Shown: positions 30,533 to 35,032, counted from the stretch's first letter. The stretch is 64,000 bases of DNA from Nitrospirota bacterium (GCA_963818475.1 CAWFSF010000006.1:672001-736000); one strand, 5' to 3'. The notes: generated by a model not told the origin, from the sequence alone. Made by a program: numbers and translations.

Positions 30533-31853
30533 GATACTGATAGCGGAAGACGAGGACATCACCCTAAAGCATCTGGTGAAGGCCCTCCAGAACGAAGGCT
30601 ATCTGACCGAAGGCACGCAGAACGGCGCCGATGCGCTCCGGAAGATCGAGGCCGATCATTTCGACCTGCTGATCGCGGACATCAAGATGCCGGGGCTCAC
30701 CGGGATCGAGCTGCTGGAAACCGTCAGGGAGCGGCAGCTCGAGATCGAGGTGATCATCATCACGGGATTCGGCAGCATCGGCTCCGTGGTCGATGCCATG
30801 AAAAAGGGCGCCTACGATTACGTGACCAAGCCCTTTGATCTCGACGAACTGCTGCTCAAGGTCAGGAAGATCCGCGACCAGAAGGTCCTGAAGAAGGAGA
30901 ATGTCGCGCTCAAGGCCTATGCAGGCATGGACAAGAAGGTCTCGATCATCGCCAAGAGCGCGAGCATGAACAACATCCTGGCCATCATCGACGGGATGAA
31001 GGATTCCGACTGCAATGTGCTGCTGACCGGCGAGACCGGCGTGGGCAAGAGCCTGCTGGCAAAGATCATCCATTTCACCAGCCGGCGGCAGGGCATGCCT
31101 TTTCTTTCGATCAACTGCGCAACGCTGACCGAGGAACTGCTCGCGAGCGAGCTCTTCGGCCACGAGAAGGGCGCCTTCACCGGCGCGATCAAGACCAAGC
31201 AGGGGCTCGTGGAGATCGCGGACACGGGCACGCTGTTCCTCGACGAGATCGCGGAAATGGCGCCGAACCTCCAGGCCAAGCTGCTCAAGGTGATCGAAGA
31301 AGGCGAGTTCTACCGCGTGGGCGGCACCCGGCCGGTCAAGGTCGATGTGCGGTTCATCGCCGCCACCAACCAGAACGTGCGCTCCATCATCGCCGAGGGC
31401 AGGTTCCGCGAGGACCTGTACTACCGGATGAACATCATGGAGATCTCCATCCCCCCGCTCCGGGACCGCCGCGACGACATCCTGCCGCTCTGCACCTATT
31501 TCCTGGAAAAGCATATCCTCAGTTCCCGCAAGAAGATCTCGGGGTTCACGAAAGAGGCGCTCGACGTGCTGATGCACTACAGCTACCCGGGGAACGTGCG
31601 CGAGCTCGAGAACATCGTGGAACGGGCGATCATCCTTGAGAAGGGCGACACGATATCGCCTGCCAGCCTGCCCCAGACCATCAAGATGTTCCAGATCGAG
31701 ACGATAGAGCCGGACCGGGTGAAGACGATCGAGGAGCTGAACAAGGAGTATGCCGTGAAGGTGCTCGAAATGTTCGGCGACAACAAGTCAAAAGCCGCCG
31801 AGGTGCTCGGGATCTCGCGCACCAGCCTGTGGAGGATATTGAAGGAAGAATAG
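30522..31853 (+). CDS. Sigma54-dependent response regulator (REC-AAA-HTH)
   Basis: [46 protein letters not shown]. Confidence 0.93.
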   Translation: MAFKILIAEDEDITLKHLVKALQNEGYLTEGTQNGADALRKIEADHFDLLIADIKMPGLTGIELLETVRERQLEIEVIIITGFGSIGSVVDAMKKGAYDYVTKPFDLDELLLKVRKIRDQKVLKKENVALKAYAGMDKKVSIIAKSASMNNILAIIDGMKDSDCNVLLTGETGVGKSLLAKIIHFTSRRQGMPFLSINCATLTEELLASELFGHEKGAFTGAIKTKQGLVEIADTGTLFLDEIAEMAPNLQAKLLKVIEEGEFYRVGGTRPVKVDVRFIAATNQNVRSIIAEGRFREDLYYRMNIMEISIPPLRDRRDDILPLCTYFLEKHILSSRKKISGFTKEALDVLMHYSYPGNVRELENIVERAIILEKGDTISPASLPQTIKMFQIETIEPDRVKTIEELNKEYAVKVLEMFGDNKSKAAEVLGISRTSLWRILKEE

Positions 31854-32042
31854 ATAGTCCTGCCAGAAACCAACCTTTCGTTCACCATGGCCGCAGCCCT
31901 ACTGCGTGTCAACTCCCCAGAATGAAACATTTTGCAATACCCCGAAAATACCCTGAATGGCAGTCTTTTTTTAATTGAATATATGAAACTTTTCTGATAC
32001 CTTGGTAGCATATTTTTTAATCTTTAGCAAGCGGGGGGAATC

Positions 32043-32936
32043 ATGAGAAAAAGCAATATTAGTTTCAGCTTATATGTTTTTATCGCACTGGTGCTATTTT
32101 TTAACACAACAACGGCCAATGCTGCGGAAGATCAGTACCAGGCTGAAATCTCAGCGCTTTATAATCACCACGAGTCCAGCGACGATTTCAAGATGGACAT
32201 TGCAGGCATTTCCGGGGAGTTTTTTTTCTCGCCGGTGAACACGAAAGAGCATCCCTATGCCGAAGCGGCATTTCTGGAGCGGGTCGGCAGTGTGTTTGTG
32301 GCAAGCTTCCTGTCGGATATAAAAGGAACAGGTCTGACAGCTGACGGGATCACGTATGACATCGGAGTTAATTTAGCGCAGCCCGGTTTTCCACTTGCTG
32401 TCCAACTGGTATACATGACTTCCGATTACGACTATGATCAGCCCAGCGCTTCATTCGAATCAAATCTATATGGAATCAGCCTCGGAAACTATGTTACGGA
32501 CAATTTAATGGCTGGTGTTGAATATTCTAGCAGCAAATCCGAGTGGTCAAATTCGCTCTTTCCCACCATGACGTGGAAGTCGAAAGATTACGGACTATTT
32601 GCGCGATACGCCGGCGAATTGTCAGAGGGGAAGCATGTGAGCCTTGAAGGAAGCCTCGGACAGAGCAAATCGGAAGACGATATAGAGAGCGAGAAAAACG
32701 CAAATATCGGTTTGGCCGCTGACTACTTCTTCAACCGTGCGCTAAGCGCGGGGATCGGCATCGAACGAAGCTCGGGCGATTCTCAAACCGAAGAGGGCAT
32801 GACCTACACGGCGAACGTTCGCTATTTCATTACTTCGCAGTTCTCGCTTCAGGCGGCATACGACCGGTTCCTGAACAGCAATGCAGGCGTTGCAAGCGAC
32901 TGGTCCTATACGCTTGGTGCTGCTGTCCGGTTCTGA
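32043..32936 (+). CDS. Outer-membrane beta-barrel protein (putative porin)
   Basis: Signal peptide; P.AEAAFL.R..SV motif; alternating strands; terminal Phe. Confidence 0.75.
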   Translation: MRKSNISFSLYVFIALVLFFNTTTANAAEDQYQAEISALYNHHESSDDFKMDIAGISGEFFFSPVNTKEHPYAEAAFLERVGSVFVASFLSDIKGTGLTADGITYDIGVNLAQPGFPLAVQLVYMTSDYDYDQPSASFESNLYGISLGNYVTDNLMAGVEYSSSKSEWSNSLFPTMTWKSKDYGLFARYAGELSEGKHVSLEGSLGQSKSEDDIESEKNANIGLAADYFFNRALSAGIGIERSSGDSQTEEGMTYTANVRYFITSQFSLQAAYDRFLNSNAGVASDWSYTLGAAVRF

Positions 32937-33076
32937 TGATTTCTGGTTACTGCAGGTCCGAATCGGAAAAACATATTGTAGCGATTGACTGAAACCTGGG
33001 AGCTGATCAGCTCCCAGGTTTTCTCTTGAAGAAACGAAACACTGCAGGTTTTAGAAAAAGTATTTTCAATTAGGCT

Positions 33077-33231
33077 TTCCAGATTGAGACGACCGAGTGA
33101 AGATGATCGACGAACTGAACAAAGAGTATGCCGCGAAGGTGCTCGGAATGTTCGGTGACAACAAGTCAAAAGCTGCAGAGGTGCTCGGGATCTCGCGCAC
33201 GAGCCTGTGGAGGATATTGAAGGAAGAATAG
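33077..33231 (+). repeat. Displaced copy 1 of the 3' end of the sigma54 regulator gene
   Basis: Matches 31689..31853 from TTCCAGAT to GAAGAATAG, with a ~10-nt deletion. Confidence 0.92.
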
Positions 33232-33356
33232 ATGTGCCTGCCGGTAGCCAAACCTGCCCCTGTGGTCCCACCTTTGTAATAAATCAAGGCTTTACCAAGA
33301 ATTTCAATATACCGATCCTGACCCAAGAAAAGTTCATGTCAATTTACAACTTTATG

Positions 33357-33384
33357 TTGACAATCCAACACAAAGTGGTAGTAT
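33357..33384 (+). promoter_or_regulatory. Putative sigma70 promoter
   Basis: TTGACA-N16-TAGTAT with TGn extension. Confidence 0.5.
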
Positions 33385-33433
33385 GCCGCGCAACATAAAA
33401 AAAGATCACATGAAAACCCGTGGAGAGCAAACG

Positions 33434-34144
33434 ATGAAAACGATGAAAATGATGAAGTTGAATTTACCCCTAGTGTTCCTTTGCGCCTTGGTCTTGGTGC
33501 CCGTGCTGTCCGTTTTGCTTGTCGGATGCGGCGGCGGGGGCGGCGGCGGCGCAGAGGCGCCGCCACCACCACCGTCCATCATCAACGCCAGCTTCGAGGT
33601 GTTGGGCGCGAACCCCGACGGCGGGCAGCCGTACGGGTGGATCCGTGAGGGAATGAACGACTGGAGCCACGACACTCTCGGTGTTCGACGCAAGACGGGC
33701 ACGGGCTTCATGCCCACCGATGGGCAGTACTTCCTGGAGTTTCCCGCGAGCGATGCGGGGACCGGGATTTTTCCCGGGCACTATCCTTTACTGACGGCCT
33801 ATCAGGATGACGTCAATCTCTCGGGCGCTACGAGCCTGGTGTTCGACTACGAGGTCACGGACCGCAGCATCTTCGCCGGGAGCGGTGGGGGGTACGACGG
33901 CGCCGCAACGGTTAGTATCTTCTTTCAGCCCAACGGAGGTGGAAGCGGGACGATCGTGTTGTGGTCTAAGAACTACGGGCCGGGGACCGCCGGGGAGCAG
34001 GTCTTCGACATGAGCGTCCCTCTGTCCAACCTCTCCGTTCCGGGAAGACTGACCATTCAGGTAACCGCTGCTGCCAGCAGGCAGAACAGCCTGGTCTCCC
34101 TCAGCAAGCTCACCTTCCGGATCGATTTCATCGGGGTCCAGTAG
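33434..34144 (+). CDS. Hypothetical lipoprotein with Gly/Pro linker and beta-rich domain
   Basis: LLVGC lipobox, G8 and P6 runs, INASFE start of a likely beta-sandwich. Confidence 0.7.
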   Translation: MKTMKMMKLNLPLVFLCALVLVPVLSVLLVGCGGGGGGGAEAPPPPPSIINASFEVLGANPDGGQPYGWIREGMNDWSHDTLGVRRKTGTGFMPTDGQYFLEFPASDAGTGIFPGHYPLLTAYQDDVNLSGATSLVFDYEVTDRSIFAGSGGGYDGAATVSIFFQPNGGGSGTIVLWSKNYGPGTAGEQVFDMSVPLSNLSVPGRLTIQVTAAASRQNSLVSLSKLTFRIDFIGVQ

Positions 34145-34254
34145 CAGTAGTAATAAAAGAGTGGTGTGAAGCAAACGGGGGGCATCCGAACTTGTGGGAC
34201 GCAGTGACCGCGGGACCTCCCGTTGGTTCTCAGGGTGCTTTTCCCGTTTCGTTT

Positions 34255-34373
34255 CTAATACAAACGCATTTAGATTTGTTACTGATTTGCCCTTTGTCCT
34301 CTCCCCAGCGGGGAGAGGGTAGGGCGAGGGGGGGCTTTCCTGGATGTAACAATATTTAATTCGTTTGCATTAG
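34255..34373 (+). mobile_element. MITE-like element family A, copy 1
   Basis: TIR ctaatacaaacgcatt / aattcgtttgcattag; internal cctctccccagcggggagagg hairpin. Confidence 0.75.
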
Positions 34374-34499
34374 TACGCACAATGCACGGTGAGCTCGCTC
34401 ATTTTTGATTCCTTTTCCCGCTCCTCCAGCTCCCGCTTCACCGTTTAAAAGGCGTTCAGATCCGAGTGCGGCAGGGGACTATATGGGGTCACCCATTGA

Positions 34500-34664
34500 T
34501 TCCAGATCGAGACGGTAGAACCGGACCGCGTGAAAACGAACGAAGAGCTGAACAAGGAGTATGCCGCCAAGGTGCTCGAAATGTTCGGTGACAATAAGTC
34601 AAAAGCCGCAGAGGTGCTCGGGGTCTCGCGCACCAGTCTGTGGAGGATATTGAAGGAAGAATAG
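34500..34664 (+). repeat. Displaced copy 2 of the 3' end of the sigma54 regulator gene
   Basis: Matches 31689..31853 from TTCCAGAT to GAAGAATAG. Confidence 0.92.
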
Positions 34665-35032
34665 ACTTCCTGCAAGAATACAAACCTTCCCCTGTTTCCC
34701 CACCTTCTGATCGCGCAATGAGAAGGCAACCGCCTTCTGTTTTAAAAAAGCCCATTAAAATGCTTCAGAATGTCATTTTGGATAGGCTGCGCAGCTTCCT
34801 CCTGAAATTAGCTATTCCGTTTCTGCATGTTAGTCGTGCTAATATAACTTGGCATCATTTTGTATATTAGTCTTTTTGAACAAACATAGCGATTTCAGGA
34901 AGTTACGTCAAGTTTTTCCATATACTCATTGACCGGATTGCCCGTTCTATGCTACTGTATCCCGAAGAACTAATAACTTGTTAACCATGACTAAATATCT
35001 CCGATAATTTGAAGACGAGAAGGGATTATAAG

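Follow-up and report, generated by a model that had tools for sequence, protein, structure and literature searches.

Three tandem copies of a regulator gene end in a Nitrospirota genome: a possible case of serial 3′-end displacement

Introduction

We analyzed a 64,000-nt stretch of DNA, read as one strand, from a Nitrospirota bacterium (GCA_963818475.1 CAWFSF010000006.1:672001-736000; hereafter, the window), in which the 3′ end of a gene for a sigma54-dependent response regulator is present three times. The last 165 nt of the gene, together with about 45 nt beyond its stop codon, form three direct copies in the same orientation, at 31689, 33077 and 34500, and one gene lies between successive copies. 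We refer to these copies as tails 1, 2 and 3 and to the intervening genes as cargos; the starts of tails elsewhere are given as offsets from TTCCAGAT, where tails 2 and 3 begin. Throughout, G-numbers designate genomes of the family, L-numbers other loci, including metagenome contigs, and C-numbers contigs. The locus had first been described in a prediction (hereafter, the original prediction) that saw in it a set of mini-islands captured at a specific site by a recombinase acting in trans, in an array akin to an integron. The array comprises the following features:

31689..31853, + strand: tail 1, the working 3′ end, coding for a linker and a Fis-type helix-turn-helix
31854..31907, + strand: flank after the tail 1 stop codon, type I; also found on the displaced tail of L062, with about 17 nt left in G003
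32043..32936, + strand: cargo 1, a Porin_7-like outer-membrane beta-barrel (PF16956, E 6e-16)
33077..33231, + strand: tail 2, displaced; a 10-nt deletion after its 14th base breaks the frame
33232..33275, + strand: flank after the tail 2 stop codon, type II; homologous to the flank in G004
33383..34144, + strand: cargo 2, a predicted lipoprotein of 253 aa with signal peptide and lipobox, outside any Pfam family
34500..34664, + strand: tail 3, displaced and full length, with a TGA directly upstream
34665..34707, + strand: flank after the tail 3 stop codon, type II-like; joins an integrase remnant at 34708

Data and methods

The genome to which the window belongs is a metagenome-assembled genome of 4.66 Mb, 91% complete and with 6% contamination. 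Orthologous loci were represented by 16 loci of the family, each with about 10 kb of downstream sequence; the tail was scanned for in 64 family genomes, and an exact-pattern scan of metagenome contigs yielded 19 loci. The integrity of the assembly was assessed by aligning Logan contigs of four runs from four studies to positions 30500-36600, where uncovered parts carry no meaning; among the sequencing runs compared, the highest fraction of sampled words recovered was 0.11. Tyrosine recombinases were sought with a hidden Markov model (HMM) built from 18 seeds of this genome and the family, which in a control recovered 10 open reading frames (ORFs) of the genome itself, 4 of them non-seed. The genome was also compared with itself, retaining repeats on the same strand with a spacing of 0.3-8 kb and a length of 80-600 nt.

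Three ends of one gene

An ungapped repeat search delimited the copies as 31689-31854, 33067-33232 (80%) and 34500-34665 (92%), and gapped alignment gave the final borders of 31689-31853, 33077-33231 and 34500-34664, in agreement with the original prediction. Tail matches in the 4.66-Mb genome number exactly three, all in the array. Both displaced tails extend precisely from TTCCAGAT to the stop codon, beyond which weaker similarity persists for some 45 nt, again as originally described. The first 15 nt of the tail are identical in tails 1 and 3 and carry one mismatch in tail 2. The corresponding border within the regulator gene, ATG|TTCCAG, conforms to G|TT; the base preceding TTCCAGAT is a T at tail 2 and an A at tail 3.

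The displaced tails each differ from tail 1 by 8%. Tail 2 shows 12 differences over 150 sites and tail 3 shows 13 over 162; in both comparisons 9 differences fall on third codon positions, and 8 of the affected codons are synonymous and 4 non-synonymous. The working tails of sister species are at a similar distance from tail 1 (5-8%), with 8 differences over 162 sites in G004 (6 at third positions; 6 synonymous codons and 1 non-synonymous) and 13 over 162 in G005 (12 at third positions; 12 synonymous codons and 1 non-synonymous). Because the differences from tail 1 lie mostly at third codon positions, an excess already remarked upon in the original prediction, the extra tails were once real gene ends: they are former working ends of the gene in some lineage rather than recent local duplicates. 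Most of their divergence arose under coding constraint, and a few additional replacements and one deletion have followed since. The proposal that replacement 3′ ends had displaced older ones thus holds in this respect, the tails being former ends and, as detailed below, the units insertions relative to sister genomes.

At the protein level the helix-turn-helix residues of tails 1 and 2 are the same, and tail 3 differs by a single I-to-V replacement. Since these residues are near-identical across tails, an exchange of tails would leave DNA recognition unchanged, and the suggested swap of the activator's DNA-binding end would be functionally empty. Sequence upstream of tails 2 and 3 shows no similarity to the regulator body, nor does the upstream sequence of one tail resemble that of the other (28-255 of 300 shuffles reach the observed score). 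We therefore reject the notion that the extra tails are eroded full-length paralogues, there being no residual homology upstream of either. The original prediction had named such paralogues, together with variable breakpoints, as the pattern that would speak against it: the paralogues are ruled out, whereas the breakpoints do vary in other lineages.

The units defined by successive tails are 1388 and 1423 nt long, and their cargos are a beta-barrel and a lipoprotein, with a DUF1554 lipoprotein gene after tail 3; all of this matches the first description. Each unit comprises a single ordinary gene, which has a promoter region of its own, and is free of element debris. The porin gene of unit 1 has its own terminator hairpin, at about 32995-33028.

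Integrity of the assembly

In a metagenome-assembled genome with 6% contamination, three strain variants of a locus might have been strung together by the assembler, and the three units do resemble three alleles of one locus. We nonetheless consider such an artefact very improbable. Unique sequence, and not regulator body, precedes each displaced tail, and the frame-breaking deletion makes tail 2 no possible working end. Moreover, contigs of three other studies bridge the end of the porin gene and the tail, as well as the stretch before tail 3 and the tail: contigs of runs X2 and X3 lead from the porin gene across 33079 into a tail, one X4 contig starts from 33042 and reaches a tail after 34 diverged letters, and another X4 contig does so from 34459 after 40 diverged letters. 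The junctions are hence present in three of the four runs, and both junction types (unique sequence followed by TTCCAGAT) occur in related populations elsewhere. Because contigs from three other studies show the same junctions, the array is most probably no misassembly, an explanation that the original prediction had itself put forward as a way in which it might fail.

Sister genomes and other lineages

Two genomes of the same genus present the units of the array in simpler settings. In G004 the regulator gene, its tail and a type-II flank lead straight into the lipoprotein gene, and the sequence corresponding to window positions 33082-34215 is contiguous there at 83.9% identity; cargo 2 shares 85.5% aa identity with this gene directly after the G004 regulator, and in G003 it is found at another locus. 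G004 is devoid of the porin unit and has a single tail match, with none further on its 32.7-kb contig or elsewhere in its genome. In G003 the kinase and regulator genes are deleted, the terminator of the universal-stress-protein (USP) gene is joined to the porin block about 40 nt past the expected regulator stop, and no tail 2 follows the porin; at 90% identity, the block 31908-33028 has its G003 counterpart directly after the USP gene. Not until about 38300-39100, where PDZ and RNase H genes are located, is synteny with the two genomes restored, after 16 kb of other genes in G004 and about 19 kb from the porin block in G003. Because synteny resumes only there, the regulator gene borders a hypervariable region, and each unit matches the plain single-tail layout of a sister species.

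The same layouts could in principle be read in reverse, as later deletions in G004 and G003 from a three-tail array that is old in the genus, so that loss elsewhere, rather than insertion here, would account for the differences. Direct repeats that are 92% alike can recombine, and a deletion between tails 1 and 2 would yield the exact G004 layout; the G004 tail shares sites with both tails 1 and 2 (8 and 11 differences, respectively), and related metagenome populations hold the same junctions. Such an order of events is nevertheless decidedly unlikely. It leaves the origin of the tails and the first duplication unexplained, and so competes over the order of events only; G003 lacks tail 2 after the porin and carries the lipoprotein gene at another locus; and the tail is single in G005 and in 37 further family genomes.

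Across the family, the tail was found in 42 of the 64 genomes, and more than one match was seen in four only: the genome under study (three), G014, G058 and G047. The second match in G058 was rejected as an orphan tail, since it belongs to a complete paralogous kinase-regulator pair. G047 has an orphan tail fragment on another contig that starts at about -75, upstream of TTCCAGAT. In L062, whose regulator is 90% identical, the regulator gene and its tail are followed by a G005-like flank, a PIN toxin-antitoxin pair and a displaced tail from +30, which continues into flank I and the DUF202-like gene found immediately behind the regulator in G005. A 287-aa flavodoxin-like gene lies between the working tail and a partial tail from about +55 in G014, L058 and L056; in L052 about 55-60 nt of a tail are preserved behind a gene for a membrane protein; and L059 has a distant porin homologue after the regulator. 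Displaced tails in other lineages thus start at about -75, +30, +55 and +100, positions that later erosion of the borders may have shifted. Taken together, these loci indicate that small modules have been inserted repeatedly at the end of this regulator gene, with cargos and breakpoints differing by lineage. The variation in tail number and cargo among relatives that the original prediction had anticipated is therefore seen, both in the single tail of G004 and in the other cargos of L062, G014, L058 and L056.

As a separate observation, metagenome contig L064 carries two orthologue-like regulator genes arranged tail to tail on opposite strands.

Recombinases

If the units had been captured by site-specific recombination, a recombinase or its traces might be found near the tails. 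The genome yields 11 matches to PF00589, all of them outside the window and the closest full genes about 110-120 kb away, and no match to PF00239 (serine recombinase). The tyrosine recombinase HMM returned no match among the 1140 ORFs of 40 loci around orthologues, none of the three tail copies of the genome has a recombinase beside it, and a search of 72,556 plasmid and 50,697 phage records did not recover the tail. The recombinase that the original prediction expected beside a tail elsewhere was found neither in the 40 loci nor through the records of plasmids and phages. A cluster of three tyrosine recombinase genes, all full length, is located at C6:550861-563751, about 110-120 kb before the window, and may belong to an integrated element.

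These results bear on a reading in which the units are decayed, integrase-less elements resembling cis-mobilizable elements (CIMEs), accreted in tandem by a site-specific tyrosine recombinase acting in trans on a core site within the first 15-30 nt of the tail, each element having brought a replacement 3′ end. Several features are in keeping with it: the same sharp 5′ border in the two displaced tails, whose first 15 nt are identical between tails 1 and 3 and differ once in tail 2; a repeat that begins at this border and stops shortly after the gene does, as is typical of attL and attR at protein-gene targets; and at least four hits on the same gene end in different lineages. Two published accounts also describe how decayed elements accrete in tandem while retaining their att sites (PMC5704250; 10.1101/2020.12.28.424599). 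Against these stand the lack of an integrase next to any of the 40 orthologous or related loci, the absence of the tail from the 72,556 plasmid and 50,697 phage records, and the presence of only three tail copies in the genome, none by a recombinase. No conserved sequence precedes tails 2 and 3, the breakpoints of other lineages differ, and the units, which are single ordinary genes with their own promoter region and no element debris, match the native single-tail chromosomal layouts of sister species; extra losses would further be needed in G004 and G003. We regard this reading as possible, though unlikely.

In a bolder form of this reading, close to the original prediction, a recombinase encoded elsewhere would recognize a core at TTCCAGATCGAGAC in the regulator gene and build an integron-like array of single-gene modules, an idea that seems to us improbable; the associated proposal, that the spare helix-turn-helix end carried by each module lets the host gene survive each capture, is equally doubtful. 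The one fact that points this way is the sharp border shared by both displaced tails. Site-specific capture is otherwise at odds with the units being collinear with native sister layouts rather than with mobile elements, with the lack of a shared arm upstream of the displaced tails, with starts that vary in other lineages, with unit borders that do not follow G|TTRRRY, and with the recurrence of the same architecture at unrelated genes that have no common motif.

An adjoining decayed integron

Directly beyond the flank of tail 3, the window contains the following features:

34708..34792, - strand: remnant of an integron-integrase gene, its first 28 or so codons, with one frameshift
34793..34982, + strand: attI-like region, in which the conservation among five copies stops exactly after GTT (34980-34982)
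35009..36487, + strand: gene for a DUF1554 predicted lipoprotein of 492 aa (PF07588, E 4.6e-07), the first gene after the attI-like site

A segment of about 260 nt (34729-34989) is 72-73% identical to two loci of the same genome and 95% identical to two places in G003. In the copies within the genome, the left end is the start of a truncated minus-strand tyrosine recombinase gene, the C-terminal part of which matches TIGR02249 with 89 bits, and the translation of the window remnant resembles the N-termini of family integrases that pass the TIGR02249 cut-off. Besides window positions 34708-34982, the copies are located at C6:1772156-1772746 and C5:460618-461055 and, in G003, at C1:36684-36958 and C3:48124-48270. 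Each of the five attI-like copies is followed by a different gene on the + strand, and the copy at C6:1772746 precedes a run of small + strand genes in which five of the six intergenic stretches read end in GTTA(A/G)NN before the next gene. On this comparative evidence we interpret 34708-34982 as a putative delta-intI with attI, a decayed integron, of which the DUF1554 gene and its neighbors may be candidate cassettes. No convincing attC was found after the attI-like site or at the unit ends with a crude scan that detected one site in a control array showing several.

Integron integrases passing the TIGR02249 cut-off are present in 28 of the 64 family genomes; no intact one was found in the six genus genomes searched, and among the family genomes none lies next to this regulator. 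Family integron integrases (loci L068-L079) measure 464-513 aa in 10 full-length ORFs and have an N-terminal extension of 150-180 aa; in the two proteins submitted to Pfam, this extension scores as another Phage_int_SAM_4 stretch.

The proximity of the remnant raises the possibility that the adjoining integron integrase, before its decay, inserted the units at a secondary G|TT site inside the regulator gene. The remnant and the attI-like site begin 43 nt past tail 3, the regulator-gene border ATG|TTCCAG does contain G|TT, and integrases passing the cut-off occur in the 28 family genomes mentioned. Yet the base before TTCCAGAT is T at tail 2 and A at tail 3 rather than G, the crude scan shows no attC-like hairpin at either unit end, no family genome has an integron integrase adjoining the regulator, and it is the integrase side of attI, outside the cassette array, that contains the units. 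As the units are on that side and their borders are not G|TT, integron chemistry fails to explain them, and we consider the involvement of this integrase highly improbable. For the capture proposed originally, then, the shared sharp border and the decayed integron directly after tail 3 remain in its favour, while its mechanism finds no further backing.

The same layout at unrelated genes

Self-comparison of the genome returned 141 repeat pairs, most of which are tandem paralogues or internal repeats; several share the anatomy of the regulator locus. A gene end, one to three genes and a diverged orphan end succeed one another at no fewer than four unrelated 3′-end loci, and one locus shows the corresponding arrangement at a 5′ end. 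The loci are the following:

C6:865848/867089: last 96 nt of a small lipoprotein gene and 52 nt of flank, 96% identical; one gene between
C6:737415/740822: last 186 nt of an epimerase-family gene and about 130 nt beyond; 3.4 kb between
C6:2042789/2041797: last 214 nt of a gene for a 175-aa protein; a Phd/PIN pair between
C1:339168/340152/341749: three 248-nt copies of a membrane-protein gene end; one small gene each
C6:1303979/1305201: 5′ end of an hsdM-like gene; one gene between
C5:180720-189374: Rhs-type cluster, four core-end copies before different C-terminal tips

In the C1 triple the two extra copies differ in their start position, and no motif shared by the starts or borders of the look-alike repeats was found. 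Accretion of CIME-like elements would call for a separate vanished integrase at each of these loci. At C6:740648-741007 the orphan tail has become joined in frame with a new start of 58 aa.

Other features of the window

The regulator gene, its upstream neighbors and a repeat inside unit 2 are laid out as follows:

no coordinates assigned, + strand: USP gene, upstream of the kinase gene
28941..30532, + strand: sensor histidine kinase gene, upstream of the regulator gene, broken here by four single-base indels
30522..31853, + strand: sigma54-dependent response regulator gene, intact, 443 aa, with its ATG at 30522
34250..34375, + strand: MITE-like (miniature inverted-repeat transposable element) dispersed repeat of 125 nt with terminal inverted repeats, inside unit 2 after the lipoprotein gene

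Pfam assigns the domains Response_reg, Sigma54_activat, AAA_lid_14 and HTH_8 to the regulator, which is 95.7% identical at the aa level and 93% at the nt level to its G004 orthologue. Compared with four relatives, the kinase gene has indels at 29197, 29750, 30015 and 30171 that spread its ORFs over several frames, and the regulator gene has none; the indels may reflect either decay of the two-component system in the genus or sequencing errors.

The 125-nt repeat contains a central GC hairpin. Counting copies of 100 nt or more, it occurs 15 times in the genome, on both strands, and it is present many times in sister genomes; the window contains further copies at 39014-39095 (truncated), 58134-58261 (- strand) and 63289-63417 (- strand). 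Its dispersal on both strands and its terminal inverted repeats led us to reject it as an attC site in favour of a MITE-like element. Other multi-copy stretches with many matches in sister genomes are found at 41058-41567, 48429-48543 and 39007-39054, and one of these, about 500 nt long, is 95-97% identical to several G003 loci. A GG/GC-anchored scan of 28600-39200 detected no sigma54 promoters before the cargos, and scans for sigma70 promoters and terminators gave signals not above those of shuffles.

Discussion

The interpretation that we favour, with moderate confidence, is that the array arose by serial 3′-end displacement through homology-anchored additive recombination, without a dedicated recombinase. 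The mechanism of recombination, the order of events and the donors, which we infer, may be outlined as follows. DNA from a related lineage would bring its own end of the regulator gene and whichever gene follows there; it would pair with the resident gene end and be added rather than replace it. The added tail would become fused to the regulator body, keeping the protein intact, and the resident tail and its downstream gene would be pushed further along and subsequently decay. Two such events would produce the order seen in the window, namely regulator, tail 1, porin, tail 2, lipoprotein, tail 3 and integron remnant. No element-encoded recombinase would be needed, and the events would be similar to the C-terminal displacement of Rhs genes, to homology-facilitated illegitimate recombination or to a Campbell-type single crossover of a circularized fragment. 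The array could then be seen, with an about even chance of being correct, as several alternatives for the variable region behind the regulator, stacked one after another. Serial displacement explains why the tails diverged in the manner of coding sequence, why each unit matches a native layout of a relative, why breakpoints and cargos vary in other lineages, why look-alike loci exist and why no recombinase was found.

Several observations weigh against serial displacement. The most pointed is that tails 2 and 3 start at the identical base TTCCAGAT: a random illegitimate joint rarely hits the same base twice, and the displacement model leaves this identity unexplained. By sequence conservation, the tail is no privileged anchor, being no more conserved than the gene body; the idea that it is specially conserved is unsupported by the count of exact runs of at least 20 nt outside the genus, of which there are 8 in the 165 nt of the tail versus 47 in the 1167 nt of the body. 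A sliding identity plot along the regulator gene shows no recombination break, neither the 48 nt preceding tail 2 nor the 124 nt preceding tail 3 could be traced to a donor sequence, and comparison of three look-alike loci with sister genomes gave no clean presence/absence pattern. The array also lies in a metagenome-assembled genome (91% complete, 6% contamination), and the independent contigs, at most 668 nt long, support the junctions only, the full array not being contained in one independent read or contig.

Displacement arrays are familiar from Rhs/CdiA toxin genes, and att-flanked tandem remnants from integrase-driven islands; to our knowledge, such footprints are much less known for ordinary genes without a recombinase. 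In the C-terminal displacement of Rhs and CdiA genes with orphan modules, a repeated conserved piece heads each module and older copies decay downstream. The array likewise repeats a gene piece in tandem, each time before a different module, and it is the copy adjacent to the body that is expressed; the genome itself contains Rhs-type core-end repeats of the displacement kind at C5:180-190 kb. Unlike those systems, the array repeats the very gene end, with a near-identical protein and no protein diversification, and its variable part is a separate downstream gene (porin, lipoprotein) rather than a toxin tip with its immunity gene. Homology-facilitated illegitimate recombination classically deletes recipient DNA. 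It shares with the array a single homologous anchor by a variable region, the addition of foreign DNA, joints that vary and independence from a dedicated enzyme; it differs in that part of the anchor is duplicated here and in that two joints at the same base would be unexpected. Integron cassette arrays resemble the locus in their single-gene units of one orientation, and a decayed integron platform does adjoin it, but the borders here are not G|TTRRRY, no attC was found in the crude scan, the repeats are coding and the units are on the wrong side of attI.

A further parallel is found in integrative elements and CIMEs that accrete in tandem at target-gene 3′ ends (PMC5704250), with related cases in tycheposon arrays separated by partial tRNAs (10.1101/2020.12.28.424599) and in the ssrA islands of Dehalococcoides (PMC3146451). 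The common traits are tandem units, some of them integrase-less, and a target gene kept intact by a replacement end. The locus departs from them in that no cognate integrase or intact element was found, its units are 1.4-kb single ordinary genes collinear with sister loci, breakpoints vary between lineages, and the 165-nt repeats are 8% diverged and have no longer identical core. What sets the locus apart from these known arrays is the combination of a three-deep stack, an ordinary regulator, a functionally unchanged gene end, plain envelope cargos, the lack of a nearby recombinase and sibling loci in the same genome, for which we claim no priority.

Should a recombinase acting in trans prove responsible after all, the locus would represent a new kind of gene-capture platform. 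If serial displacement is correct, the locus and its look-alikes would document how an uncultured bacterium naturally gains genes by addition next to a homologous anchor, with alleles of a variable region stacked instead of swapped and a spare end keeping the bordering gene intact. Footprints of this type could act as markers for the manner in which hotspots acquire small modules and for the donors involved.

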